Assembly: GCA_965178125.1 (NCBI GenBank)
Contig: OZ237760.1
Coordinates: 372,001 to 436,000 of the forward strand
Source of the DNA: Bilabrum cf. latius
Lineage: Eukaryota
Length of the DNA stretch: 64,000 nucleotides
Direction of reading: 5' to 3'
The notes under the pieces: model-generated
Databases searched by the model: none
Told to the model about the DNA's origin: nothing
Seen by the model: the letters and a program-made list of their open reading frames with translations, nothing else
Shown here: piece after piece, positions 1 through 64,000 of the stretch
Layout of the letters: each line of letters opens with the position of its first letter
Position numbering within the stretch: the stretch's first letter is position 1
Made by a program: the position numbers and the translations under genes

Positions 1-278
1 GCAACTGCTGTGCACTACGTGTACGTTTGCACAAAGGGAGACTGAAAGACCGATTTTTAAGTCCGAGACGTTTACTGACGGGTGCAAGAGAGCCGCGATC
101 AGGCGGTTTTCGTGCTTTTTGTTGAGAAGAGTGATGGCTGATTGTGATACATGTACGATGTTCGATGATGTACCACCTCTCCCGCGTCGCACGATGTGAT
201 GGATGCTTGGGTGATCGAATACAATTTGGCACCAGCTACACCAAGCAGCAGCGCGCGCGCACCTCATTATAGTCTTGC

Positions 279-2567
279 TCATCGACCAGAGCCGCTCGAG
301 GAGGCAGCACCCGAACCACCTTGTGGGACACGCCCAGCCCCTCCCCCTCTCCCCTCCTCCCCCCCACCCGCAAGGAGGTCAAACACGTCCCACACGATCA
401 CACACCCGTCCTCTCCAACACTCACGACCTGCCTGTCATCAGGACTAAAGTGTACCCCGAGCACTGCCTGCGAGTGCCCCTCACCCACCGCAATGCATCT
501 GGCACTCGTCAGGTCCCACAGGCGAACCGTCGAATCGGTGCCGCCCGTCACCACCCAATCGTGCTCAGAAGCACCCGCGATACAGGTGGCCTCGCCCCGC
601 TCCCCGTGCGCCGCCGGGATCATGGATACCGGCTCCGGATCCCTCAGGTCCCAGAAGGTGACCCGCCGCTCCTGCCCCACCGTGAGCACCAGGCTCTCGT
701 CCCTGGACAGCGCCAGCCCGTGCACGCCCCCCATCCTCTGCGTGTGGTTGGACACCATCCTCTCCTTCTCGAGGTCCCAGCACACGATGCTCTTGTCGCT
801 GCTGCACGTGACCGCGTGCTTCCCGTCACCGTACAGCTCGATCCCCGTCACCCTCCCCGCGTGCTCCCTCATGTCTCCGACCAAAGACCTCGATCGCACG
901 TCCCACAGCCGTAGCTCACCACGGATGCCTCCCGTGACCGCGAACCTCTGGTTGGCAGCCACCTTGGTGGCAGACACGCCGCCTTTGTGCGCGTTTGGAA
1001 TCTCCCAGAGGAAGGCCCCGTCCTCGGCCGAGTGCGACCTGACGATCCCGTCCTCCCACCCGCTGACGATCAGGTCCGGGGAACAAGCCAGGGACAGGGG
1101 GTGTCCGGCCCCCCGGCTGCTAATCACTGCCTCGGCCTCGTACGTGGTCCCGTCCCACACACGGACGGTGTTGTCGTCCCCCGCTGTGACGAACGCGTCG
1201 CTGATGCCGGGCGCGAAGGCCACGGCAACAACCGATGCTGCAGGCTTGCCGGACAGGCCCACGGAAGGATCAAGCTCTTTGCCCGCCACGGCCGAGGCAC
1301 CGCCTTTGCCCACCCCTTCTCCCGCCGCGGCAGATCGTTTCTCGTGCGCTTCCAGAATCACGTCTCTGGGCCCCAGGGCTGGAGGCTTTGTGGCGGTCCT
1401 CGGACCCGTGTCGCGACCCGCGCGAATGACGTCATCGAGCGCAACACGGCACACAACGCTGTTGCAGCAACCAAACAGAACGTCCCCAAAACCGGAACTG
1501 GGTTTCTCCTCCACTACGGGCACGATAGAACTGACACCACCGGGCGCCTCGCACCGCGCCAGCTCCCTGCACACTCCACCGCTGGATTGAACCGACCCCG
1601 AGTGCTGGCTGTGGCAGATCTCCACCGCCACGGCCACATCCACAGCGACCACCGTGCCATCACCGCACCCTGCAAGCAGCACGCCCCTCTCCCCCGCACT
1701 ACCGTGCGATGCCCCTGCAGCACCGTGCGATGCACCCACGTAGCAGAGGCTCATGACGCCTCCGGAGGAGGTAGGAAACCTTCCTATCACCTGCCTGTGC
1801 CTCACTGACACGAGAAGCACCTCCCCGCTGGCAGTGCCGCACGCCAGCAGGCTCCGATCGTCCGTGAGGCACAGCGCGGTGAAATCCCTCGCGCCGGAGT
1901 CGGTGGGCATGGGCAGCTTGCCCACGTCCACATGCCCGGTCAAGGGGTTCAAGGCGTAGACAGAGACGCCCCCGCGACCAGAGAGGCAGAACTGGTACAG
2001 CCCAGTGTCTCTTCTCTTAATGTCTTTCACGAAACCGGCGGCAACGATGGAAGAGGCGGGGGACGGTGACACACGGGACTTCGCGATCACGCACCCAGTC
2101 GCCAAGTCCCAGAAGAGCACCGTTCCGTCGGCGTGACTGCCCACCGTCGCGAGAACCCTCCCGTCATCGGAAAATGCAAGGCATGCCAAACCGTGGTCGT
2201 GCTCTTCAAACCGATAGAGCACCTCTCCTGTGGAGGACGAGGCAGCGCTGCTGCTGCTCTCTCCGGAGCGACGAGTGTCCCATACGACGACGTCTGGCTG
2301 CAACTCGCTCCCTCCAGATGCCAAGATGCCTGGTATTGGAGATGCAGATAGGCATGCGACGGGTGCGCTGTGGCCTCTGAGCATCGTCTGCTCGCCCTTC
2401 CCATCCGCAGCCTCCAGCACAACACAGCTGCCCGCCGGAAACGCCATCGTGGGTATTCTAGATTCTCTACTGGGTGCAATCGTTTGCAATCCGGTCCAAA
2501 TATCGCCGGCAAACCCAATCACATGTTGCAGCTCCAACGCAACGCCGGAATCCTCTGTTGCTGCCAT
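279..2567 (-). CDS. WD40-repeat protein, CFAP52/WDR16-like (cilia/flagella-associated)
   Basis: Single ORF from ATG 2567 to TGA 279. N-terminus LELQHVIGFAG...EQTMLRGHSAPVACL, many GH...WD repeats and C-terminal GHSQAVLGVHFSPDDRQVVSVGEDG resemble CFAP52. No in-frame TAG. Confidence 0.85.
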   Translation of the reverse strand: MAATEDSGVALELQHVIGFAGDIWTGLQTIAPSRESRIPTMAFPAGSCVVLEAADGKGEQTMLRGHSAPVACLSASPIPGILASGGSELQPDVVVWDTRRSGESSSSAASSSTGEVLYRFEEHDHGLACLAFSDDGRVLATVGSHADGTVLFWDLATGCVIAKSRVSPSPASSIVAAGFVKDIKRRDTGLYQFCLSGRGGVSVYALNPLTGHVDVGKLPMPTDSGARDFTALCLTDDRSLLACGTASGEVLLVSVRHRQVIGRFPTSSGGVMSLCYVGASHGAAGASHGSAGERGVLLAGCGDGTVVAVDVAVAVEICHSQHSGSVQSSGGVCRELARCEAPGGVSSIVPVVEEKPSSGFGDVLFGCCNSVVCRVALDDVIRAGRDTGPRTATKPPALGPRDVILEAHEKRSAAAGEGVGKGGASAVAGKELDPSVGLSGKPAASVVAVAFAPGISDAFVTAGDDNTVRVWDGTTYEAEAVISSRGAGHPLSLACSPDLIVSGWEDGIVRSHSAEDGAFLWEIPNAHKGGVSATKVAANQRFAVTGGIRGELRLWDVRSRSLVGDMREHAGRVTGIELYGDGKHAVTCSSDKSIVCWDLEKERMVSNHTQRMGGVHGLALSRDESLVLTVGQERRVTFWDLRDPEPVSMIPAAHGERGEATCIAGASEHDWVVTGGTDSTVRLWDLTSARCIAVGEGHSQAVLGVHFSPDDRQVVSVGEDGCVIVWDVFDLLAGGGEEGRGGGAGRVPQGGSGAASSSGSGR

Positions 2568-2812
2568 CAGCAATCTGAAGCTATGCTTTGCCGGCAATGT
2601 TTACAATAAACGCGGCTCTTGGTGCCCGCTACGGTTTAATTCTAGAGTGGAAACGTATATCAATGTCAATTGATCCCCTATATTGGGGCGTTCGTGCTTA
2701 AAGATTTGCTAAAAGATGCAAATATGTCGCCCAAGCCGTTGGGTGCAGTCGAACCTTCGATTGCGGTTCGCTCAAGGCAGCCGGGGCCGGCGCCGCACCC
2801 CCAGCATGATCC

Positions 2813-4189
2813 TCACGAGCTCCACTTCAAGGACGCTGACATGGTAGACACCTCTACCTCCACGGCCACGTTGGAGAACTCCCGCCGGTACACGCTCGCA
2901 AGGGGGTCAGTGGTGGCCTGATCCGCCGGACCCCCTATCTCGCCCACCGCTGTCCCATTCCTCCAGTACCGGATCGCGGGCCCGGATGGCACCCCGGGAG
3001 ACTTCGCAAACACCGGGAACCAATCGGCGGGTGCAGAGCACTGCCCCCGGGGGCATGGATACACGCCAGCGTCCTGGTTGTACCACCAGTTGTAGCTCAG
3101 GTACGTCCTCTCGGTTGCAACCACCATCCACAGGCCAGCAGCCCATTCGGAGTATTCCAACGCAGCATCGGCCTGCGCGCCGAACCCCTTGCCGTTGGGG
3201 TTGTTGGGTCCCTGCCAGCTGGGCCCATATCCGTTGATGGGCTGCAGCACTGGGCCGGGCCACCCCCTGAACAGGATGCTCTTCTTCTGCTCGCTGGCGG
3301 CGCGCCACATCTGGGTGAGCAGCCAGGACACGCGGGTGGCGTTCAGGGTGGACGTGGCCGGCGGGTACGGCGACCCCGGGGTATCGGCGCCGCGCACAGC
3401 GGAACCTGCTACAGGCTCCGAGTCGTCACCTCGCAGCACCTGCTCAAAGGCGCCCACGTGCTCCGCGCACGCGCCGTCCACGTGCGGCAGAAACTCAGTG
3501 TTTCCATGTGGAATCTGGGGGTACGTGCTCAACAGGTTACCGAAGACCTGCCTGCCCCCAGAAGCAGCTCGGAGCTGATCCAGCATGCGCATCTTGCCCT
3601 CTGCGACCTCCTCGTTTCGCTCCTCCGAGGTGCCCGCAAAGTTCGGCCAGCCGGCAGTGTCCGCAAAGTACCCGTCAGCGTGCTTAACCCCAGCTGCTAC
3701 CTTGACCCACCAGTCTCTCTCGCTTTGGACCGAGCTGTTCAGCTTGGGGCCAACTGCATTGGGCACGGGCAGACCAGAATCATTTCGAGCCCACCACTCG
3801 GGGTGCGCCTCCACGACGCTCGATTCTTTGGCGTAGCAGCCCCGGTTCACCTAGTCAGTTGACCAGTAAAATAGAACCTTTAGGTCTGGGTTCACTTGCT
3901 TCATCTTTGCGGCCCAGTACTCGAACTGGTTGATGGTATCATTTCGCGGGTTCGCTAGGCACTTTTCCAAGCTAACGATGGCGTAGTTATTCGCAACCCA
4001 TTCCAGGTTTTCATCAGTCAACGTACCAGACCCTGTTTTGTTTTCACCACCCTTGGTGAAGGTAAAATCGACCCACATGGCTTTCTGGATCGGATCGTCG
4101 CCAGACATGACCGTATGACTGAAATCTGCATGCGTCTGGCTCAAGAGTCCGAGGGTAACAATCGGTAGAAGTGCAGCACTAAGGCGCAT
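2813..4189 (-). CDS. Secreted putative glycoside hydrolase (GHL15-like)
   Basis: Signal peptide MRLSAALLPIVTLGLLSQTHA. Motifs IVSLEKC, KQVNPDLKVLFYW and DGYFAD. Two track ORFs join in frame through TAG 3851-3853. Ends TGA. Family assignment is tentative. Confidence 0.65.
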
Positions 4190-4384
4190 GTTTGTGTCTT
4201 CAGAGCAAAGTTCAAATAGATACCGCGATGCGAAGCTCGCTATGGGCCACGATCTATCGTGCGGCGCAAACATGGATTTCTGGCACGGCGCCGCGCCAAT
4301 GGGGTGCCGCTTGCGGAACCAATCGTCATGCAGCTGGATCCCTATGCAAATATATTCTCGCCAACGCAACACTCTACAATTTTT

Positions 4385-6264
4385 TCACACCCCTTGTTCC
4401 TTCGTGGAGGACACGAACGCGGCCTGCTCGTCGAGCACAGCCTGCTGCACCTACTGCTGGAAGTAGTGCTTCATACTCTGCCGAACCCGCTCAAGCTGCT
4501 GCAGCTGCTCCTCGCTTCCATCCTGCATGAGCCCATTGAGCATCACAAGAGAGACGTCCTTGGACATCGCACTCTGTGCCACTTGCATGAGATCATGCGC
4601 CGTGACGGCCTGGATGCGCTCGCACAGCTCTGCTCCTTCTATCCTCCGTCCCAGCGTGCTCGTCTGCCTCCCGATGTCTTCGCACAGCACTCCCCTTGTT
4701 TCAAGATTCATCATGATACTGGACTACAGCTAGTTCTTGGCGCGCGAGAGCTCCACCTCGCTCACCTCTGTCTGCGCGAACGAGACGAAATTCCCGGCGA
4801 GCACCTCGAGCAGGTGCTCCCAATTGGTGCTCTCGGCAGATCCGTAGCAGCCAAGCAGACCCTGGTCCGCGTACTAGAGCGAGAACGCATTCGCGGCGTC
4901 TACCCACCCATTCTAAGCCAAAATTTCCCTGTAGAATCTCGTGTACATCCCCTTGCCCGGGCCGCCTGCGGAGAAGCTGGCGCCGCCGCCGGCTAGCGTG
5001 TCGAGCAGGCACGTTGCAATCACCTCAGAGTTGGCCCAGCCGACAGCCGGGAAGGCAAACGCGACGTGCACCATGGGTGGCCCCAGCTGCACCTCTTCCA
5101 CGAACTGACCCCCCGCCACGCCCCCATGATACTCCGTGGAAGGCTCGAGCAAAGACGTGGCCAGCACCCCGGAGCTGGAGCCTCGGGCCATGTCGCCAAA
5201 CTTGTCCTTAGCTAGTCCGACCATGGCGTCGTGGTCCACTCCGGAAGCAGCAAGCACCATTCTTTCCGGGGTGTGGGTTGCCTCTAGGTACCCCAGGGCT
5301 TGTTCTCTGGTGATGGACGCGATTTCCTCCGGCTCGGCGTACTGGCTCGTGCCTAGTGGGGTGCCCGGCCCGTACGTGGCAGAGTGAAGGAGCTCCTGGA
5401 TGTACGCGCCGGCATTCTTCTTCACTTCTTCCGTGGTCACGTTCGCGTCGGCCTGCGAGGGAACAGCAGCGGCAAGAGGGTTCATGCTTTCGTTGCGAGA
5501 GGGAGACCATCGAGCGAGGATTGAGCGGAAGCCGAGTGCGCGCCTTGACGCGCATCCTTGCGAAGCTGCGCGCTCCCAGGATAAATAAATTGTTGTCTTA
5601 CCTTCGACTGGGCAAATTCATCTTCTTTGAACAGCGGATTCCGCACAGTTTCAGCAACCAAATCGACGGCCACCGGAAGGGCAGTCCGGATCGCATCGGC
5701 CCGATAGGTCAGCACTTCTCTGGAGTTAACGGACTCCACAGTGATGCCCTAGAGCTAGCCAAGTTTTTCGATTTCATCCGATGATCGGGATTTGGATGAC
5801 TTGAACGCAGCCGCCTCGAGCACGTGCGACACGCCTCGCTGCGCAGGCAACTCGTACATGCTGCCAGCTTTTGCGAATAAACCGACCGCTGCAACCTGCC
5901 TGTAGGTTTCCTATGTTGCTACAATAAGTCCATTGTCTAACGTCGTCATCTGAGTGACCGGAGTTGGCAAGTTTCGCGCTGGTTTCAGCGTCGGCAATCT
6001 GCAAGGAACGGCAACTGGTGCATGCAAGTCAGTTCAGTGAGCGCAGCCGGCCCATACTCTCGCATGGCATAGAATCTGACAAACAGAGACTGGTTAGCCC
6101 GGAAAGTTTTATTCTTGGTGGACGACTCACCCCGCTGGTTCCTTGAAATCAATACTTGTAGACAACCTCGCGACCGAGCAGCCCAGATTCTCTCTACCAA
6201 GGCACGACTGGCGGGTACCGCGCCAAGCCAAGGATCCTAATCGACTAGACCAGCGTTTCATCAT
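4385..6264 (-). CDS. PMPCA: Mitochondrial processing peptidase alpha subunit (M16)
   Basis: Arg-rich presequence, TTLDNGLIVATQ, AGSMYE, glycine-rich loop GGGASFSAGGPGKGMY, and ELSRAKNQLQSSIMMNLE. Introns 5999-6130 and 5453-5601. Eight in-frame TAG (5911, 5755, 5749, 4913, 4874, 4730, 4724, 4451). Ends TGA. Confidence 0.93.
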
Positions 6265-6532
6265 ACCTTACTGGGTACTCCCTGAGTGTCTGGACGGGTG
6301 GCGCATCCGCTGATCAGCAAATCGTGAAAGTGCACGCTACCAGCCGTCGACGTGTGGGCGAGCAAAATAGGAACAACCTATCGACAGGCATTTACACGCC
6401 TGGCTAGTACGAAATCAATCGCATTTTGTTGATAAAAACGATTTGCTGAACCTGGGATCGGCGAGGTTTACTTGTCATACCTTACGTAGGTCCGGCAGGC
6501 TGGAATTCAACAGGCGAAACGGAATCTTGGTC

Positions 6533-9082
6533 ATGCCTGGCAATGGTGGCAAGAAAAACGGACGAAAGCGCAAAGCTAAGCCAGCAAGTGCTTCCCAGGG
6601 TGTTTGTGAGTTTGTACCGATTCTTGCGTTTCCAGAAGTCGCTTGGGACTCTCGTAGATTCCGGCGATCTTTCCGTGATTGGAACGCTATGCTTGTCTGC
6701 ACATACTGGATCAACGGGTGAACCACCCGCACGCTTACTTCTGCTATTGCATACCACGTATCGCACTGGTCCACACTAGCACTGTGGCGAAGCCGTGGCT
6801 CGCGGGTATTGGTTCAGATTCATTTGGTCAAACGGCTGGATCCATACTTGGCCACTCAATGCATCGCAGCGGGACGGTGGACGCAGAAAGAACACGAGGC
6901 ATTTGTCCGAGGCCTTCGCGAGTATGGGAGAGAGTGGAAGATGGTGCAAAACTACGTGAGCAACGACTTCGTGGGGCTGCCGAGGTCACTGTGTCGCCAG
7001 CACCGCCCTCATGCAACCGACATGGATGCGTGCTTTTCCCTAGCTCTTTCGCAGGTCCCCACTCGAACCGTCGTTTAGATCCGCACACACGCACAAAAGT
7101 ATTTCCTGAAGCTGGTCAAGTAGTACGGGGACGAGACGGCAGAGCTCGCGTTCAGGGGCGGCAACGCCCCTGTCACAGACATGGGCATGCCTGGCTCAGG
7201 CGGGGGTGGGACGGCGCAAGGCACCTCGCGGGGACCCTCATCGGCTCGCAAAGGTAGCGATAGCAGTGGGGGTGGGCGGACTCGCTCTGGCTCTGTCCCG
7301 TCGGGTCACGACGAGGACGACGAGGAGGACGAGATGGGGGGGTCAGCTACGGATGGTGAGGGTGACGATGGCGGGTCTTCTTCGTCGAGGAGGAGGACTG
7401 GCCGCCGGTCGAGGAGGACACAATGGGGCCCCGGGGGAGTCCCACGCAAGCGAGGCAGGGGCAGGTCCTCGACGGGCGATGGGGAGGACGAGGGCGAGCA
7501 TGATGATGATGAGGAGGAGCAGGAGGGTGACACTGGAGAAGGCAGCGAGGACTCCTCCCCAGCAGCGGGCAGCTCCCGTCGCAGCGGCAGCAGATATCGA
7601 AGCCGGAAGAGAGCCCGGAAGGAGCTGGGGCGGGCCGGTAGAGTGCCACGGGGCGACAGCGAGGAGGGGGAGGAGGACGAGGACGAGGATGAGGAGGAGG
7701 AGGGGTCAGGCGGCGAGGGCAGGCCAACTGCCGCGAGTGGGCGGCGGGGCCGCAGGACTGGGCGCTTCTCCTCATCGTCGCGTGGCTCGCGGCGGCGGGA
7801 GGCTGCCTCCAGACTTCTGGGGCAGCACCGGGGGAACAACGGGTCGGGTGCCAGCCCCGGTTCCCTGGAGTCGTCCCCAATGGGCGCGGGCGGCCGCAGC
7901 GGCAGGGGTCGGCCCTTCCCAGCGGGTGGGGGCAGCAAGGGCGGGCCCAGGTCACGGTCTGACAGCGCCGCCTCGGTGCAGCCCCCACGGCGCTCCCCTG
8001 ACGGGCAGCCCATCCCCCACACGCCCAGGATGGTTGAGGCAGCGTTCAGCCTGGTGGCCCACAAGACCATGACCAACCTCAACAACGGGAAGAAGACGCC
8101 CCGCACCATCGAGGCGGCAAACTGGATCGCGGCTATTGGGCAAAGCCACGCGCAGGCCCAGGGAGTACGCGCCTAGCAACAGGCAGGCATGGGCAGGGGC
8201 AGGGGCAGGGGCATTGCTGTGTCGACCCACGGACAGGGCGCGCCGAGCTCCCAGGGAACAACACCGCACGGCTCGCCGGGCCAGGGTCCCATGCTAGCAG
8301 CAGGGCCGCATGGGGGCAGGCCTCCCTTGCCGCACGTGTCCGCGCAGGGCCCCGCCATCCATCCAGTGGCGAGCACGGCCCCTTCCGGCGCCCCGCCCAC
8401 GCTGCCTCCAAGGCAGCTGGGGCACCCGCCCAGAATAGCACAACAGCAGCAGCAGCGCGCTGCAGGCGGCGGGCAGCCTGGTGCGGCGGCAGGATCCCAC
8501 CCCCAAGGGTGGCGGGTGCCCCCCGGGATAGGCCAGGGAACAGACGCGACTCGCTCTCATGTCACCTTCCGGCGGTTTGCACCACCAGGCACTGCTATCG
8601 CCTCGGGGTCCTCTTCAGTGGTACCTTCGGCCGCGACATCATCGGGAGTCGCGGGGACAGCAAGGATGGGCATGCCGGGGTCTGCTTGGGGGGCGGCGGC
8701 GCAGCAGCTTGCAGCCAGACAGCAGTAGCAGCAGCAGTAGCATGCTGGTCAGTCCAGTGGACGGTCGCCAGACCGCCAGCCCCAGGCCGCGCCGACCGGT
8801 AGGTCGAGCAGCAATTCGCAGTCGTCCTCTTCTTCATCTTCTTCGTCGTCTTCGTCTTCTTCGTCGTCTTCGTCGTCTTCGTCTTCTTCTACATCCTCTT
8901 CGTCTAGTGCCACGGCTCCCACGTAGGCGGTGGTGCTTGCCAGTGCATCGGATGGCCCAAGCAGCAGCCAAGCCGCAGGGTAGGGGTAGGGGGCCGGGGA
9001 ACAGGCAGAGCATGAAGCGAAGCAGCCGGCAGCCTCTACAGGCATGATGCCGCCGCCGCCGTCATCAAGCGTAACCACGTAA
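6533..9082 (+). CDS. SHAQKYF-class single-repeat MYB transcription factor with long low-complexity tail
   Basis: GRWTQKEHEAFVRGLREYGREWKMVQNY/VPTRTVV(TAG)IRTHAQKYF. Introns 6606-6869 and 6956-7054. Eight in-frame TAG. Ends TAA 9080-9082. Confidence 0.9.
8822..8906 (+). repeat. TCT/TCG trinucleotide tract encoding poly-Ser in the MYB gene
   Basis: tcgtcctcttcttcatcttcttcgtcgtcttcg... is in frame with the MYB tail. Confidence 0.8.
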
Positions 9083-9245
9083 CTGACGGGCGCCGTGTAA
9101 GGTCACAACGCAGAAATCCAATGGGTGGTACGGGTACGGTTCGGTTCGGCGCGTTGTGATTCATGCGCGTGACCTTTTGTTGTATATCCATACCTTTGAT
9201 GAAAGGGTTGCTTTCTTGCATTCATTGACTTTTGGTAAGTAGTGT

Positions 9246-34019: not shown

Positions 34020-35352
34020 ATGGCTAGTGTTGCCGGGTCTAGTTCAGCGTCAGAAGGGTATGAAGTTGACCGCGAAAGCTGGAAGAGCTCGGACGGGATA
34101 TGGAAACCAGAGAAGTTTGGCCTGAAGGAAGGGTTCATCCTTACCGACTTTAGCGATGTGAGAGATTTCTACCATGCTAGATCAATTCTATCTGATGCTG
34201 TATGGCATTCGTTTTCTTGGTTCCAGGTAGCTTGCTTGACATGATTCGCAGCTGAAAGGATGAGGCTGCAAAGTCCCCCAAGAAAAGCTGCTATCTTACC
34301 TTGACCATATCGGGATGGGTGAAAAACCAAATGAGACACCGGGGATGGATTCGTCGGTCGTGAGATTGCCTGCGATTCCCGGATGTCCGAAACAGCTGTA
34401 CCTGCTGTCTACCACTGATTTCTTTTATCCGCTCGTGGACGATCCGTACATCCAGGGAAGGATTGCTTGCGCCAATGTGCTTTCAGACTTGTACGCGATG
34501 GGCTGCAGCGAAGTCGCCACTGTCCTCATGATGCTAGGCGTCGCTATTCCGATGTCCGCCAAGGAGCGAGACGTCGTTACGACGCTACTCATCAAGGGGT
34601 TTTCGGATGCTGCAGAAGAAGCCGGCACCAGCGTCACTGGGGGACAGACCGTTTTGAATCCCTGGGTCATTGTTGGTGGCGTAGCAAAGGCTGTGTGCTC
34701 AGAGGAGCAGTTCGTCAGGCCGGATGCTGCCGTCCCGGGAGACGTGCTCGTCCTCACGAAACCGCTCGGCACGCAGGTGGCTGTGAACCTCCTGCAGTGG
34801 GCCAGAGGGGACAAGTGGAGTAGGGTGGAAGGCACCATCACTCGGGAGCAGCTTGCTGGCGCCATGTGCACGGCCACAGAATCCATGGCACGGCTGAATC
34901 GGCACGCAGCCGAGGCCATGACCGAGCACGGAGCTCACGCCGCCACTGACGTCACCGGGTTCGGGTTGCTGGGCCACGCGACCAACCTTGCGAAATCGCA
35001 GAAAGCCCCCGTGCACCTCCGAATCCACACGCTGCCCATCATCCGACACATGGCCGAAGCCGACGCCGCCTACAAGCAAGCGACTGCTTCGGGTTCTTCT
35101 CCCGGTCGCAACTTCAGGCTGGTGGAGGGTTACAGCGCCGAGACATCCGGTGGTCTGCTCGTGTGCATGCCCAAAGACAGGGCAGATGCTTTCGTGAAGG
35201 CAGTCAGCGAGGCAGACGGGCAGCCCGCCTGGATCGTCGGGGAAGTACTTGGGGCAGCAGGTGCTGGTGCAGGCGCTGCTGGGGCTGGCGAGTCAGAGGT
35301 TCTCTCCGTGGGTGCATCCATCGCGGACGGAGTGAAAGTGGTGGACGTGTAA
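34020..35352 (+). CDS. SEPHS2: Selenophosphate synthetase (SPS2/SelD), selenoprotein with in-frame TGA at 34261-34263
   Basis: After removing intron 34158-34251 it reads LTDFSD/LKG(TGA)GCKVPQ. Also TTDFFYPLVDDPY, ANVLSDLYAMG, VTGGQT, LTKPLG, ATDVTGFGLLGH and AETSGGLL. Ends TAA. Confidence 0.95.
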
Positions 35353-51118: not shown

Positions 51119-51224
51119 TGTAGAACGTCCTTTAAGGATGCGCCTTTGAAGGCCCCCTGGTCGGAGTAGCGTGCGAAGATCGACCAACGAATACAATTTA
51201 GATATATTTGCGCATACTGTCTCC

Positions 51225-54200
51225 ATGATTGGCCCGGTTGTTGCTTTGGCGCTGCTCCGGCCTTTAAATATATCTATAAACCATCTCGATCCCGTCCATT
51301 TCATCTCTGGATCGTAGACTGACGGCGCGCGAGGCTTGCGTGTTGCGTATGGCTTCGGCAGTGCAAGTGCACACGTACAGCCCTGTGGGGCGCAAGTGAA
51401 ATTGCGTCATGGTGATTCTGTGATTACATGCGAGGCTATGACTGCCTCGTATTGGGCAGACGTCGATTGTGGAGCGAATGAGTTCCCGGGCTCCGCGCTG
51501 GAAGTGCAACTGCGAGCTCTCGTCGTGCATCGCGCTGCTGGAAAGGCCAGCCGGGCTGATCTGAACAAACTGTGCTCAATTTCAGAAGGAGCAGTTTGGA
51601 CTGGGTGGTCTTCTCCGTACTCCGTCGTCCTGGCAGCCCCGGCTGCACGCGAGGAGGCAAGCGTTGCTTGGATTGCCGGAACCTCCCAGCAAGGAAACAC
51701 GGACCACACAGCTGGCGGCTTGCTGCGTATTCCCATTCATCTCCCTAGCCTTCTGCAGCATGCCAAGCACGCGGCAATTCAGGCAGCCAGCCTCCGCAAC
51801 TGGTCCGCGGGTGCAGCAGCGACGACCGCCGCGCCAGCTTCAGCCGTCCTGCGGGTCACCACCCCAGCCTACGCAGAGATCCACCTCGGAATGCCCTCAC
51901 TGCTATCACCAAATGAAAGGGTTCATCACTCTGGCACCAGTACGTGTTAGCAAGCCATGGACAGGGGCAGCTCCAAGCTCGGTCTGCAGTCCGCCCTGTG
52001 GAGCCCTTCGCAGTTCGAGATATCCGTGTATCAGAAAGCATTCGACCTCTCTCCATGCGTGATGAGTGCGCGTACCGAGATGAGCGGCGGTTCCGTTGGC
52101 CTGAATGCGTCTTCGAATGTCACTGCTGTGGTTGGCGTGGCTATGGGACGCGGCTACTGGTCACACTTTGAATACGGCGAGCCGCGAGTGGCTGTTTCCA
52201 TGAGCGTGGGTGTCAACCTCGTTGCCCAGAGGGCGTCAAAACCAGGGGACAGGGATGCAGGTCAGGTCAATGGCAGCTTGGGTGACGCCCAGTCAGCAGT
52301 CGCGACCGTTAGCTTTGACCTCGGGGCGCTCGGCCTCGCCGGCACTTCCGGTGGATCGGCCGTGGTATCGCTGCACTCCATAGACAGCGATGGGAGATTG
52401 ACAACCGACCCCCGTGCGCCGCACAATCCCGTCCTAGTTGACTTGCCGTCGCCGTCGCCCGAGTGGCCCGCCATCGTAGCCAGCCACGACATGACAGACC
52501 AAGGCCAGGACCAGGACACGAGGAGTAATGGCATGCAGTTTCACGCCGGTTGGATCACTTCCAACGACATGTACTGGGGAGAAGAGGCGGACGGGCGGCT
52601 GCTCGTGTCCAAGGGAATCGCGAATTGGACCAGTCCCGAGTACTTGCCCAGCCCAGCAGACGGGTGGCAGCCGGCACGCGAGGCGCAGGACGGGGCGGGC
52701 GGGCCGCCTGGTGCTCCAATGCCTCTGGACATGCCTTCGATCGCCTCAGGCGTTGACGGTACCGTCGAGCCCATCGCGAACTGGAGTGCCCAATCACCGG
52801 ATGGCTAGCGCTCATCGACAGTTTTCGATTTCGGAGCGAACCTGGGCGGGTGGACGAGGCTGGTGGTATCTGGGCCAGCAGGGGCGTGGGTGCGCGTGGG
52901 TCATGCAGAGCGAGTGCACGGAGGCGGTTTCCGGTCTGATGATGCCAGGGGGTCGTCGTCATCTACTGCTGCGGCTCGGGGTGGTCTTGCAAATCAGTAC
53001 GATTGCTTCAGACCGTACTCCAGGGTGTGCGTGAACCAGACCAACACCTACACCCTAGCAGGAACTGCTGTGTGTGCCGCCGGGGACCCGCTGGCCTGCG
53101 ATGAGGCGTCGGTCTACCCATTCCCCGTTGAAATTTACGAGCCTCGATTCGCCTTTGCGGGGTTCCAGTTTGCTCAGGTGGAGCTCGGGGGCGGGGCACG
53201 GCTACATGCCATCCACGGAATCCGAGTCCGCACCCAGATGCATCACGCCGTGCTGCCGCACACGTCAGACCCCAACTCGCAGGCAATCATCGACATGGTA
53301 GTGCGCACGTATGACGCCAATATGGTCGGGCTGCAGCTGAGCTGTCCGCAGCGCGAAAAGTTCGGCTGGACTGCGTGAGACGAGGAAATGATGTGTCGTG
53401 AAGCTTCCGATTGCCACCGTGTCTGCGCCGTAGTCGTTGAGCTCCAACCGCTTTGGCTTAATTCATTTGGTGCCACGTTGCTCCCGCTGAGTTGGCTTTG
53501 CTCTTTACTCGCGTGCCTCGCAGAGAGTGAGTTGACCGTCCCGAGCCCTCCGAGCATGCCACAGTGTGCAGCATCGCGATCGGATCAAGATGGCCAGTTT
53601 CAGTTGCTCTTGCTGCCGCTCGTCAAGCTACTTCCTACACGATCTCTTGCCTTTCCCCTCCTAGTTCGCAGCACCTTCCTGGTGATGCCATCCGTGATGC
53701 AGGTGTACGGCGACTCCTCTGTCCCTTTCTTCCAGAACTACTACAAGAGGATCCTCGACACGCGCACCATGGCCAAGAGAGGCATCGTGCCTGTGGGCAC
53801 GCAGTACGAATCGAGCACGATCACGCCGGTTGTTCACGGCAGCATCGCCAACGGATCAATCCCGGAGACCATACCACACATCCAGTTCCAGATCGATCCT
53901 TCCCCCAAGTGGCCCTCTCACAACGGCAGCTGGCCCGGCGACCCCGGCGGCTGGACTCCCGTGTTGCCCATCACTGCCAGGCACGTCGTGAGGCAGGACC
54001 CGGTTCTGGGACCCAAACTGGTTTGCGAGCCAGATTCGATCCAGGCTATCCTAGGCTACCTGGACTTTATCTACGTCACGTACGTCAACAGGACGGCTGG
54101 AGTCAGCATCGCAGCGAACCGAGGGGACTGGTCGTCACCCGTGCACCCAGGCATCACCAAAGCATTCACGGGGCCGGTCATCGGTGCCACGTACTACGTC

Positions 54201-55463
54201 CGCTCTCTCCGCAGCGGGGCAGTAGTGGCCGAGGCATGCGGCATGAATACCCTCGCCGAGCAGTTGCGTCGCAACGCGAGCGCAGCCAGGGCGGGCATGG
54301 ACGAGCTTACCTTCAACCAGAGCAGGCAGGCGTACTGGAACTACCCGGAGTACGACCAAACCAACAACGCGCTGCCCCTGTGGCTAGACTTCATTGACCC
54401 GGACAGGCCATCGGCGCGAGAGAAAGGTGCCAGCCCATCCCACCACGCTCGCGAGCTGGTGACACCGACAGATGGGGCCCACGCCAGTGCGGCCGCCGCG
54501 GCACTCCGCTAGGCAATCGGTGAGGCAGGGGAGCACCTGAGCACTGGCCTCTTTGGCTCTGCTGCCCTCTTGCCTGTTGTAGGGAGTGTGCTGGGAAACA
54601 CGTCCCTGGCTCACACCATGCTGACGTAGGAGTCGAAGCCGTCGTGGTACGCGTTCCTGGCAGCTGACCCGGGGTCTACCCTATGGGAGACGTGGGACGG
54701 TGCGGGCAACGGCACTGGCCCCACCCTGACCAACAGCCTCAACCACCCGATGTTCGGCGTGGTGCTCGATTACCTCCTGCCCCAGTATGCGGGTGCAGTG
54801 CACGACAGAGACCCTGTATCCGGAGCACCTAGGATACTGCTGCGCCCGCGCCGAGGCATGAAGGCCTTGGCTGCTGCAAGGGGGACCCGGGAGGATAAAG
54901 CAAGCATCGGGCGTGAAGTGGGCAGCGCTTCGTCCAGCTCACACGCAGCCAAGGGCGCGCTACGGTGCTCCAGTGCAGCCTGCAGGGCGTGCTCAAGGGT
55001 GACGAGTGCGCTGCCCGCCGCGGACCGTGGCTCAGTTGAGTGTTTCGGCTCCGAGTTCCTCCACGAGGGCGGGCACACATCAACGGCGGTAGTCGTGGCT
55101 CTTGTAGAGGAGGAAACAGGGGAAGAATAGACGAGGGGGCCTGGTACCGATGCCGTGCCGCTCGGCCTTGACTGCCAACTCATGGAAGGTCCCAGTAGTG
55201 AGGAAGAGGGCGGTGTTTCACAATCGCCTCCGTGGAGCCTCCGTGTTGTGCGTGGCAGCAGTGCGCACCATCAGGCGGGTAGTGGGGGGGGTCCCTCTGA
55301 TGTGGTTGCGTGTGCGTTCGTCACCACGCCGGCTGGCGTACAAGTTGAAGTTGATGATCGCACGCTTGGCCAAGGAAGAGAGCTGCAGTCTGTGGGTGCC
55401 GAGTGGGGCACATACAGTGGCGTGCTTCGTTTTGGCGAGCAGACGGCGTCTATTTCTGAATGA
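51225..55463 (+). CDS. GH78 alpha-L-rhamnosidase-like glycoside hydrolase
   Basis: VFDFGANLGGW, YEPRFAFAGFQF, CPQREKFGWTAD, RGDW, HLSTGLFG, MLT(TAG)ESKPSW, TLWETWD and NSLNHPMFG. Introns 53375-53523 and 53527-53671 flank a 3-nt exon. Six TAG. Ends TGA. Confidence 0.88.
53524..53526 (+). other. Putative 3-nt micro-exon (AGA) of the GH78 gene
   Basis: The context is ...CCTCGCAG|AGA|GTGAGT.... Inclusion converts GWTA-TF into GWTADTF. Confidence 0.7.
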
Positions 55464-59371: not shown

Positions 59372-62300
59372 TCACCAGCCAGGATCCGAGTAATCGCCAT
59401 ACTCGTCCTCCTCGTCAAACCCAAAGCCGCAATCGTCAGGATCGAAACCAAACCCTGCCCGGAACCAGCGTGACCCGCTGCCGGCACCGCCCCGTGCAGA
59501 CCCACCACCAGCCCTGCTGCGGGATGCCTTCTTCCTCTGCATCGCACGCAGCTCCCGCTCGTACTCTGACCGCAGTGAGGGCGTGGTGAGCACAGAATAT
59601 GCCGTCTGTAGCCGCTGGAATGCCTCCTTGGTGCCGCCCTTGTCCGGGTGCAGCCGCAGCGCCAGCTTGTGGTAGGACTTTCGGATCTCGGAGGCGGTCG
59701 ACGCACTCGTCACACCAATCACCTCAAAGTGGTTCACGAAGGCAGCTTCCTCTGCGGCTGCCTCTGCCTCCCTGCGCTATCGCTCCTGCTCTCTCCTCCG
59801 CGCCTCCGCCTCTTTCCTCCTCCTCGCCTCCTCTGCCCTGCGCCTCCGCGCCTCTTCCTGCCGCTTGGCCTCCTGCCTGGCTCTCTCTCGCCGCATCTTG
59901 CGCTCTCTCTCCTCTTCCGCCGCCTTTTCCTACCTGGTCCTGCGTATGTCGTCCCGCAGCGCCCGAATCGAGGACTGGCTCCAGGACCCAGCAATCGTGG
60001 GTATCAAATCGGTGCACGACACCTGCACCTCATCGTTGGATTCTGCAAAGGAGCTCGCAGCTACCGCGTGCAGGTGGATAGGCACTCCGAACACGAGGGT
60101 GTCGCCGGGCACGCCGTACCTCCGCAGCACCGTGCCGTCCAGATCGAGGGCGCTGCGGATGTCGCCCATCGTCTCCAGCTCCCTGCACTCGATCACGGCT
60201 CGCATCAATTTCATCGCTCTCTCAAGACTATCTATCGCCTGGTCGTACCTGTTGAGGCCGCATAACGCCTTGCCTTCCAGCAAATATTGCTTGGCCCAAC
60301 CAAACCCGTGCTCAACTTCGTCCAAATCGTCCCGGGCCTTAGTATACTGCTTCAGCTTCAGGTGCACAGCGGCTCGGTCCAGATACAACCTGCTCTGGGT
60401 GTGGCTCCAAGCGTTCTCACGAAGAGCGAGCCTCATTCTCACATGCCGGGCGCGATCGATTTGTTCCGTGCACGTTGCCAGGGCGGCATTGAACTAGTTC
60501 ACAGCCGTCTTCTCGCGCACTGAGCGCTGCATACTCCTGTGCTCCTCGATCCACGCGGAGATCACTCTTGCTTCGTGGTACGGAGACTCGTACCCCAGCT
60601 AGGCTGGCCAGAACTAGGCTGCACACCCGCAGAAATCGCACGCCCTATGCTTCCTCTTGGACCGATGATCCCTCCGCAGCTCCTCGTCCCTGGGTGCTTC
60701 GTTTTCCGTGGCTCGGTAGGCCCTGCTCGCCCGGGACCGGCTGAGCCTGCTCTGCAGCAGCGACCGCAGGCCAATTTCCATCACCCTCAAGTTGACGTCG
60801 TCGCCAACCCACGAGCGGGCAGCATCAATCGAGGGAATCACAGACAGGCCATCAGACTGCCTTGACGAGGGGCTTACCCCGAAGCCACCCGAAACACCAA
60901 ACGCAGCAGATGCAGCAGCAGGATCAGCAGTGGAGGCTCCGCCCTGCGCAGCTCCGCTGCCTGACCGCAGCACTTCTTCTCGCAGCTTGCCCAGCTCCTT
61001 GATGGGCTCTCTGGGGCCTGCCCACGTTGCGTTATCCACGAGATGCGCAGAATCGATGGCATTCTTGAGCCGAGCAGGCTGCGTGAAATCTGCCGCTAGC
61101 CGGCTGTCAACCATAATTGACCACTTGGATGTGTTCTTTGCCTTGGCCACTGCGTGGCAGAAGAACCCGTCACAAGCGCAAGGCCAGCAGGAATCGACAG
61201 CCAGCCGGTCGCCTTTGCTGGCGACAGCAGCGAGCACCCTGCCAGCACCTTCGCTCATGTTGGCCTCCTGCAGCGCAATGGCTGCCTCTACGCCGAGCAC
61301 ACACTGCTCGTGGGTCTACCTTCCATCCGCGAGCGACACGTTGGTGCCTGCCCCAAGCAGCTGCGGCGGAAGCGAGCCCCACGCAGCCGCCAGCGCATGC
61401 GCTGGAGCAGTGCTTACTCGCAGTCCCCTGCACTGCAGCACTCGGTGCACCGTGCTCTGCTTCAGGAAATGCGTGGCTCTTTTGTTCCGCTTGCATCTCA
61501 CGTCCAGGAGCTCATCTGGACTAGTAATCGTCAATCTGGGACTGGTCACATCCCACAGCCCGTGTAGCCTGCGGGCAGCCACTACATTCGCAAGGTTGAA
61601 GGAGTCTTTCTGCCGCTTGTGAGACTCGGGCGGCAAGCTGCATTCCATGATCGCAGACTGAGCTACTCGAAGGTCGTTGACGTGGCTGGCTATCCCTGGG
61701 AGCGCTTGCTTCGCCTATATCTTTCGCTTCGAAGGAGCACCCCACGAGTCAGTGAGGTGCTACGAGGTCAGCATCAGAGAGGGGCAGGACACGCACCTTA
61801 GCTACTCCTTGGAAACGACGGCCTGCTCCCTCATTGCTTTGTTCTTGGCCGCAAGAGTGACGGATGGATACGGACTGTCAGCAAGCACGAGCGCCACCGC
61901 CAGCGCCGCCTCAGCATACGACCTTGCCCGATTCAACTGACCGACTTCTGCCAAGGCAAATGACATCGCGAACCATGCTTGAAATGCCCATGGGCTCACG
62001 CTCAAGGCCCGCCTGCCGACGTCTATGCACCGGGTGTACTGCTTGAGCTCCCAATGAAGCAGGCACTCGTTGACTGCCAGTTCCTGGCCAGAGATGCCCT
62101 GTTCCACAGCGCCCTGTATGCGAAGAAGGGCACTCTGAGGGGATCCTTCCTGCAGCCTGTCCTGTGCCTTGTCCAATAGCTGGCCGAGCGGGCTGCCTTG
62201 TGGGCCAGCGGCAGCTTTAAAGTCAGAGCTACTATCTGCTGCTGCACTACCGGACTTGCCAAATGGAGAGCTCCGCGGCTTCTCCCCAAACACACTAGCG

Positions 62301-64000
62301 GTCTTTTTTGACTTTTTTCTGAAAACTCGCTTCGGCTTCGGCTTGCCCTAAGCAGAGCCATTAGGAGCATCAGGAAATGGAGTGCCAACACCCGTCGACT
62401 GCCCGCCAGAGCTGCCCCAAACGTCCTGCGCTGCTGAGCTCCCTGATGCATCCCCAAAGCCAGCTGCCATAGGCGCCCCAAACGCATCCACACCTCCACC
62501 ACTGACACTGCCAGTCCCCGCACCCACACCCGCACCCGTCGACGGCTGCCCGCCCGAGCTGCCCCAAACGTCCTGCGCTGCCGAGCTGCCTGATGCATCC
62601 CCAAAGCCAGCTGCCATAGGCGCCCCAAACGCATCCACACCTCCACCACTGACACTGCCAGTCCCCGCGCCCGTCGACGGCTGCCCGCCCGAGCTGCCCC
62701 AAACGTTCTGCGCTGCCGAGCTGCCTGACGCATCCCCAAAGCCAGCTGCCATAGGCGCCCCAAACGCATCCACACCTCCACCACTGACACTGCCAGTCCC
62801 CGCACCCACACCCGCACCCGTCGACTGCTGCCCGCCCGAGCTGCCCCAAACGTCCTGCGCTGCCGAGCTGCCTGACGCATCCCCAAAGCCAGCTGCCATA
62901 GGCGCCCCAAACGCATCCACACCTCCACCACTGACACTGCCAGTCCCCGCGCCCGTCGACTGCCCGCCCGAGCTGCCCCAAACGTCCTGCGCTGCCGAGC
63001 TGCCTGACGCATCCCCAAAGCCAGCTGCCATAGGCGCCCCAAACGCATCCACACCTCCACCACTGACACTGCCAGTCCCCGCACCCGCACCGGCACTCAC
63101 ACCCGCACCCGTCGACGGCTGCCCGCCAGAGCTGCCCCAAACGTCCTGCGCTGCCGAGCTGCCTGACGCATCCCCGAAGCCAGCTGCCATAGACGCCCCA
63201 AACGCATCCACACCTCCACCACTGACACTGCCAGTCCCCGCGCCCGCACCCGCGCCCGTCGACTGCTGCCCGCCAGAGCTGCCCCAAACGTCCTGCGCTG
63301 CCGAGCTGCCTGACGCATCCCCGAAGCCAGCTGCCATAGACGCCCCAAACCCATCCGCACCCCCACCACTGACACTGCCAGTCCCCGCACCCGCACCCGC
63401 ACCCGTCGACTGCTGCCCGCCCGAGCTGCCCCAAACGTCCTGCGCTGCCGAGCTGCCTGACGCATCCCCAAAGCCAGCTGCCATAGGCGCCCCAAACGCA
63501 TCCACACCTCCACCACTGACACTGCCAGTCCCCGCACCCACACCCGCACCCGTCGACGGCTGCCCGCCCGAGCTGCCCCAAACGTCCTGCGCTGCCGAGC
63601 TGCCTGACGCATCCCCAAAGCCAGCTGCCATAGGCGCCCCAAACGCATCCACACCTCCACCACTGACACTGCCAGTCCCCGCACCCACACCTGCACCCGT
63701 CGACTGCTGCCCGCCCGAGCTGCCCCAAACGTCCTGCGCTGCCGAGCTGCCTGACGCATCCCCAAAGCCAGCTGCCATAGACGCCCCAAACGCATCCACA
63801 CCTCCACCACTGACACTGCCAGTCCCCGCACCCGCACCGGCACTCACACCCGCACCCGTCGACGGCTGCCCGCCCGAGCTGCCCCAAACGTCCTGCGCTG
63901 CCGAGCTGCCTGACGCATCCCCGAAGCCAGCTGCCATAGACGCCCCAAACGCATCCACACCTCCACCACTGACACTGCCAGTCCCCGCGCCCGCACCCGC
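59372..64000 (-). CDS. Large TPR + C-terminal J-domain (DnaJ class C) protein with N-terminal tandem repeat; 5' end lies beyond the window
   Basis: J domain NHFEVIGV...IRKSYHKLALRLHPDKGG...FQRLQTAYSVL. TPR-like segments near 60200-60400 and 61870-62150. A single frame through ten TAG runs into the repeat array. Ends TGA 59372. Confidence 0.85.
62390..64000 (-). repeat. Coding tandem repeat, at least 11 units of 132-159 nt (44-53 aa)
   Basis: Unit DAFGA(S/P)MAAGFGDASGSSAAQDVWGSSGGQ(Q/P)STGAG(VGA)GTGSVSGGGV. Copies are near-identical and length variants are multiples of 3. The array runs off the window end. Confidence 0.95.

Follow-up and report, generated by a model that had tools for sequence, protein, structure and literature searches.

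An expressed MPP-alpha gene with eight in-frame TAG codons points to a nuclear code in which UAG, alone among the stop codons, encodes glutamine

The window analysed here, meaning the whole 64-kb stretch of DNA, has a GC content of 55-67% and carries on its minus strand a three-exon gene for MPP-alpha, the alpha subunit of the mitochondrial processing peptidase, at 4385-6264 (Table 1). The spliced coding sequence runs from the first in-frame ATG at 6262-6264, with an in-frame TAA two codons upstream of it, to the TGA at 4385-4387 and comprises 1599 nt, or 532 codons and a stop. It contains eight TAG, 24 CAG and three CAA codons, and the two minus-strand frames with the M16 and M16_C domains are open only when TAG is read through. 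The Arg/Ser-rich N-terminus of about 45 residues encoded in exon 1 looks like a mitochondrial presequence, which we infer from its composition. The original prediction had described eight TAGs and no other lesion in this gene. The spliced coding sequence indeed has exactly eight, and no in-frame TAA or TGA precedes the terminal TGA; the range given for them, 4724-5913, spans seven and the eighth lies further downstream at 4451-4453. The three TAGs that had been singled out (4730-4732, 5911-5913 and 4913-4915) are all present and in frame on the minus strand as codons 418, 74 and 357.

Table 1. Features of the MPP-alpha gene and of the neighbouring Myb gene, with the matching codon of the relative on metagenome contig L001 and the residues found in the family alignment.
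Feature	Positions	Strand	L001 counterpart	Evidence or family residues
MPP-alpha exon 1	6131..6291	-		spliced contigs and CDS; transcript contigs begin at 6264-6291
Intron 1	5999..6130	-		132 nt, GT..AG; absent from one contig each of X5, X6 and X7; present in DNA run X1
Exon 2, Peptidase_M16 N-terminal domain	5602..5998	-		PF00675 E 1.7e-24; PDB alpha-MPP matches; contigs
Intron 2	5453..5601	-		149 nt, GT..AG; absent from contigs of X5, X6 and X7
Exon 3: Peptidase_M16_C, C-terminal tail, stop, about 45 nt of 3' UTR	4340..5452	-		PF05193 E 1.4e-24; PDB alpha-MPP E 8.7e-43; contig ends 4339-4390
Glycine-rich loop G-G-G-x-S-F-S-A-G-G-P-G-K-G-M-Y, typical of alpha subunits	4943..4990	-		aligned to solved alpha-MPPs
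TAG codon 74 (after ...GLIVAT)	5911..5913	-	CAA (Gln)	S 32, E 16, Q 16 of 73
TAG codon 126	5755..5757	-	CAG (Gln)	E 69, Q 6 of 89
TAG codon 128	5749..5751	-	GAA (Glu)	hydrophobic/His, Q 0 of 88
TAG codon 357 (after ...EILA)	4913..4915	-	AGG (Arg)	R 73, Q 12 of 120
TAG codon 370	4874..4876	-	CAA (Gln)	F 49, Q 33 of 120; Q in 7 of the 9 closest matches listed
TAG codon 418 (after ...RAKN)	4730..4732	-	CAG (Gln)	Q 106, M 14 of 120
TAG codon 420	4724..4726	-	CAG (Gln)	K 59, Q 2 of 120
TAG codon 511, variable C-terminal tail	4451..4453	-	GAA (Glu)	
TGA, true stop of MPP-alpha	4385..4387	-	also ends TGA, then second TGA	
Myb in-frame TAG	7076..7078	+	CAA (Gln)	
Myb second in-frame TAG, conserved part	7121..7123	+	CAG (Gln)	

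The identity of the gene was assessed using searches of the PDB and alignment to the family. With exon 3 the top five matches were alpha-MPP chains (best E 8.7e-43) and the best MPP-beta followed at about E 1e-30, and with exon 2 the top four were alpha-MPP chains (best E 1.8e-19) with the best MPP-beta at about E 1e-15; in both searches the beta subunits and bc1 core proteins ranked below alpha-MPP. MPP-alpha is the non-catalytic, substrate-binding M16 subunit and doubles in many lineages as a core subunit of respiratory complex III. The zinc-binding motif of catalytic M16 subunits is HxxEH, and at the site aligned to it exon 2 reads H-V-L-E-A. The columns of the glycine-rich loop, G155 to Y170, were invariant or nearly so in an alignment of 121 sequences. 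The M16 and M16_C domains, the matches to alpha-MPP structures, the loop and the H-V-L-E-A site together argue that the gene is a normal MPP-alpha, a non-catalytic M16B subunit. The solved alpha-MPPs (9g9t_E, 8bep_A, 7jrg_B and 1hr6_A, matching exon 3 with E-values of 8.7e-43 to 2.7e-36) likewise have two M16 domains, a glycine-rich loop and a degenerate zinc motif; the window gene differs in being only about 40% identical to any named homologue and in a tail of about 50 residues at its C-terminus, found otherwise only in the L001 relative described below. Within the 64-kb window tblastn found no second copy of MPP-alpha, TAG-free or otherwise, its sole match being the gene itself, and this check matters little since the whole window uses TAG as sense.

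Expression was assessed by comparing positions 2600-9200 of the window with public sequencing runs X5 and X6 (study P2), X7 (study P3) and the DNA run X1. One contig from each of X5, X6 and X7, and so from two studies, joined the three MPP-alpha exons with 0 differences from the window and with all TAGs kept. The joined blocks were 4339/4390-5451, 5601-5998 and 6131-6264/6291, and the contigs skipped 5453-5601 and 5999-6130, both GT..AG, which confirms splice sites that had been called intact from the sequence. In the DNA run X1 the MPP-alpha stretch was unspliced, and one long contig of this run contains the window. The run type of X5-X7 was guessed ('RNA?'), and RNA-derived sequence is evident from the spliced contigs alone. 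MPP-alpha is expressed and spliced, and its TAGs are not RNA-edited, as the spliced contigs are identical to the DNA with the TAGs unchanged. X5-X7 carry two organism codes other than that of X1, and their transcripts match the window with 0 differences. One contig of X5 connects the WD40 gene with the neighbouring GHL15-like gene.

To evaluate the residues at the TAG codons, 120 homologues were aligned with TAG masked as X and Q was counted in each TAG column. The mean Q fraction was 0.198 in the TAG columns, compared to 0.136 in the columns of the gene's own CAG and CAA codons and 0.036 in all columns, and when eight columns were drawn at random 100000 times, only 128 draws reached 0.198. 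When log-odds were summed over the eight TAG columns for the 120 homologues, Q was the sole residue with a positive value (+4.29), the next being M at -5.2, with E at -9.69. The original prediction that the TAGs sit at conserved Gln positions therefore holds as an enrichment over the TAG columns and, as strong conservation, at one of the eight only. This is codon 418 (Q in 106 of 120), where the family pattern that had been quoted fits exactly, and it does so only there; codon 357 is mostly Arg in the family (73/120) and codon 128 has Q in 0 of 88. The last TAG, codon 511, precedes the TGA by 21 codons and the transcript end by about 110 nt. Similarity to the L001 relative runs about 12 residues past this TAG into the shared tail, and both genes end in TGA, indicating that codon 511 is read through and is not a stop.

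The closest MPP-alpha homologue among the matches listed, P0003, was 59% identical and comes from the 3549-nt metagenome contig L001, which represents a relative with about 57-67% protein identity to the window genes. L001 is syntenic with the window: the same SHAQKYF-class Myb gene, at 6385-9082 (+) in the window and 1-715 (-) in L001, lies head to head with MPP-alpha in both. The class was assigned by a TIGR01557 match exceeding its cut-off, and the window Myb has introns at 6606-6869 and 6956-7054 (from spliced contigs). Of its eight in-frame TAGs, two fall in the conserved part that binds DNA, and TAGs of this gene are present in the spliced contigs. L001 has in-frame TAGs of its own in the same two genes, at other positions, and one of them stands at the Q of the H-A-Q-K-Y-F motif. 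A codon-by-codon alignment of MPP-alpha and Myb gave 17 TAG sites, 11 of which faced Gln codons (7 CAG, 4 CAA), the remaining partners being three Glu, one Arg, one Thr and one Gly. The ten window TAG sites faced seven Q, two E and one R in L001, and the seven L001 TAG sites faced four Q, one E, one T and one G in the window. With Gln codons at about 4.5% of aligned L001 positions, the binomial chance of 11 in 17 is, by our own estimate and not as a tool output, about 1e-10. L001 has a GC content of 0.49-0.57, below that of the window, and in its two genes there were seven aligned TAGs and 0 in-frame TAAs. MPP-alpha terminates with TGA in both organisms. As a relative at about 57-67% protein identity has it too, the reassignment appears to belong to the lineage and not to one strain.

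The publicly available gene models of relatives looked truncated, and the window's own MPP-alpha was absent among the protein matches listed. The P0003 model begins at an internal Met six codons past an in-frame TAG of L001. Another predicted protein of a relative, P0133, ends exactly at a Gln of the window PSS, which may fit a TAG called as a stop.

The use of the three stop codons was then quantified over the whole window. With all three read as stops the longest ORFs were 773, 761 and 613 codons, and with TAG read as sense they were 2306, 1542 and 1190 codons; reading TAA as sense in addition resulted in almost no ORF gain. Among 23 long TAG-read ORFs, 18 matched Pfam families, including WD40, amino-acid permease, PSS, ICMT, nitrilase, GH32, rhamnosidase, SelD and DnaJ. 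We counted 97 in-frame TAGs in the 17850 codons of 22 long ORFs, and they occurred in 20 of these ORFs; the WD40 and SelD frames had none. The other two frames contained 109-133 TAG, a density similar to that in frame, together with 306-330 TGA and 40-47 TAA. Frames of this length exist only if TAG is read through, which argues that TAG is not a stop. Zero in-frame TAA and TGA in these ORFs follows from definition, as they were delimited by TAA and TGA. Outside MPP-alpha, seven TAG sites across 14 ORFs fell inside Pfam domain envelopes, so most of the window-wide TAGs rest on ORF continuity and not on homology. At least six homologues matched PSS, a low-complexity query, and its TAG residues 224 and 226, where the alignment is ambiguous, were left out of the counts. 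A very long frame, at 59372-64000 (-), contains ten in-frame TAGs and runs off the window end; it encodes about a dozen near-identical Gly/Ser/Ala-rich repeats, each of about 45 residues, then TPR repeats and, at the C-terminus, a DnaJ domain.

The terminal stops of the 22 ORFs were TGA in 18 and TAA in four, a crude count in which some ORF ends may fall in introns. When ORFs were delimited by TGA only, TAA occurred in the coding ORFs solely in the first ~100 or last ~70 codons and TAGs were spread throughout; internal TAAs were found only in antisense frames. This position of TAA at the ORF edges and the TGA stop of MPP-alpha in both organisms suggest, for the 64 kb sampled, that UAA and UGA still terminate. 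No ORF in the 64-kb sample needs a TAG stop, and the true 3' end was mapped for one gene. Two internal TGAs deserve description. The GH78-type alpha-L-rhamnosidase at 51150-55463 (+) consists of two same-frame ORFs split by a single TGA at 53376-53378 after G-W-T, and this TGA probably lies at an intron start, in sequence readable as a GTGAG donor. The SelD/SPS2 gene at 34252-35352 (+), whose family was confirmed by the Protein Atlas, ends in TAA and carries, immediately 3' of a likely splice acceptor, an in-frame TGA at 34261-34263. This TGA aligns with the catalytic Cys of the Pythium homologue (L-K-G-C-G-C-K) and therefore probably encodes selenocysteine; UGA would then serve both as stop and as Sec.

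Together these data support a functional, expressed MPP-alpha whose eight TAGs are very probably glutamine codons, in a nuclear code where UAG encodes Gln and UAA and UGA are stops, the pattern of NCBI table 15. The assignment to Gln draws on the 11 of 17 ortholog pairs that are Gln and on Q alone having positive log-odds. Under the standard code the gene would instead have eight premature, inactivating stops, as would be expected of a pseudogene or silent copy, or of a gene whose TAGs are repaired by RNA editing. We regard either as barely credible: apart from the TAGs the gene has no 'lesions', neither a frameshift nor an in-frame TAA or TGA, its spliced transcripts show 0 differences from the DNA, and the same TAG pattern is found in 20 of the 22 long ORFs and in the relative. 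The original prediction of a functional gene with TAG as Gln, and not a pseudogene, has thus gained from the expression, the window-wide TAGs, the 11 of 17 swaps, the homology past the last TAG and the Q-only log-odds. TAG might also stand for a residue other than Gln, be it Glu or, following other variant codes, Lys, Tyr or Leu, and Glu does face TAG in three of the 17 ortholog pairs and fills the family column of codon 126 in 69 of 89. With Gln in 11 of those 17 pairs, a summed log-odds for E of -9.69 against +4.29 for Q, and Q or M at codon 418 in 120 of 120 homologues, such a meaning is extremely unlikely.

Two further readings keep Gln and differ in how the stops are used. TAA could also encode Gln (UAR=Gln, the NCBI table 6 pattern) and be nearly absent through high GC. 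TAA is indeed rare in the window, with 357 occurrences on both strands versus 862 TAG and 1549 TGA, and UAA and UAG usually switch meaning jointly, according to the excerpted text of PMC5304391. The CAA:CAG ratio of 137:576 in the 22 ORFs, however, predicts about 20 in-frame TAAs beside the 97 TAGs, all TAAs of the TGA-delimited coding ORFs lie near the edges, four ORFs end at TAA and reading TAA through hardly lengthens ORFs. The less GC-rich L001 (0.49-0.57) still has no in-frame TAA in two genes versus seven TAGs, and we consider this reading very unlikely. Dual use of TAG, as sense and as stop, would fit the late TAGs in poorly conserved tails, for example at residues 426 and 437 of the ICMT ORF and residue 636 of the PSS ORF. 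Each long ORF is nevertheless closed by a dedicated stop, TGA or TAA, and the last MPP-alpha TAG, 21 codons before the TGA, is read through by homology to L001, leaving dual use only a slim chance of being correct.

If UAG is the only stop codon reassigned to Gln, it would be decoded by a tRNA-Gln whose anticodon, CUA, differs by one mutation from that of the dominant CUG isoacceptor, and an eRF1 weaker at recognising G in the third stop position would let this tRNA-Gln(CUA) win. Both steps are modelled on other UAG=Gln lineages; the excerpted text of PMC5304391 describes for other lineages a tRNA-Gln(CUA) that recognises UAG and no other codon, along with an eRF1 that reads a third-position G less well. 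ARAGORN detected 0 tRNA genes in the 64-kb window, and Rfam was also without matches there. Capture of UAG alone would be favoured where a genome is rich in GC, encodes Gln mainly by CAG, terminates mainly at TGA and has few TAAs. The window fits such a capture, as its 22 ORFs contain 576 CAG and 137 CAA, most of them end in TGA and TAA is scarce.

By sequence similarity, the nearest named homologues are those of oomycetes and other stramenopiles. For MPP-alpha, among the matches listed, they were Aplanochytrium, Aphanomyces, Albugo and Saprolegnia at about 38-41% identity, and for SelD they were Pythium, Phytophthora and Aphanomyces at 57-61% identity. In a FastTree of SelD, a quick single-gene tree of the top 120 matches only, the window grouped with a 96-97% identical protein, and both belonged to a clade of 31 rows (SH-like support 84) in which every named member is an oomycete; we take the oomycete affinity in this tree as a hint and not as a placement. 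We also considered an aphelid, an algal parasite group with UAR=Gln, as the source of the DNA and rejected it, as the named best matches are stramenopiles and not fungi or opisthokonts and TAA is a stop.

UAG is rarely reassigned by itself; its meaning nearly always changes jointly with that of UAA. The fornicate Iotanema spirale, likewise not a ciliate, reads UAG alone as Gln and still uses UAA as a stop, and an eRF1 T32G change has been proposed there. It is an anaerobic metamonad from an unrelated supergroup, whereas the window organism has a classical MPP-alpha and homologues nearest those of oomycetes and other stramenopiles. Besides Iotanema spirale, UAG-only reassignment to Gln is known for the ciliates Protocruzia tuzeti, Hartmannula sinica and Trochilia petrani, which fall in two lineages and use the same translation table 15 with UAA and UGA as stops (the excerpted text of PMC11687900). 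UAA is the main stop in these three ciliates, according to the same excerpt, whereas TGA closes 18 of 22 ORFs in the window, which also differs from them in its 55-67% GC and its ordinary spliceosomal introns. Users of table 6 (Amoeboaphelidium protococcarum, ulvophyte green algae, oxymonads and many ciliates) likewise changed a stop to Gln. They reassign TAA too, according to the excerpted text of PMC5304391, whereas TAA in the window behaves as a stop. Full-text searches, limited to the main text of openly available papers, brought up no description of UAG=Gln in any stramenopile or, besides Iotanema, in a GC-rich non-ciliate. The code type is known and rare, and the window organism apparently adds a new lineage to it. 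A bolder reading, which we put forward tentatively and at somewhat less than an even chance, is that this would be the first nuclear code change in a stramenopile: a lineage-wide reassignment of UAG only to Gln in a GC-rich, intron-poor oomycete relative, with an independent uncoupling of UAG from UAA and with UGA as the main stop and, in SelD, Sec.

With UAG read as Gln, standard-code gene callers truncate the proteins of this organism, and its genome and related metagenome contigs need table 15. A further unrelated GC-rich lineage would represent another independent origin of the UAG=Gln code and would show recurring eRF1 changes. It would also allow a test of whether GC pressure, through CAG-rich Gln and TGA as the main stop, drives the capture of UAG by tRNA-Gln(CUA).
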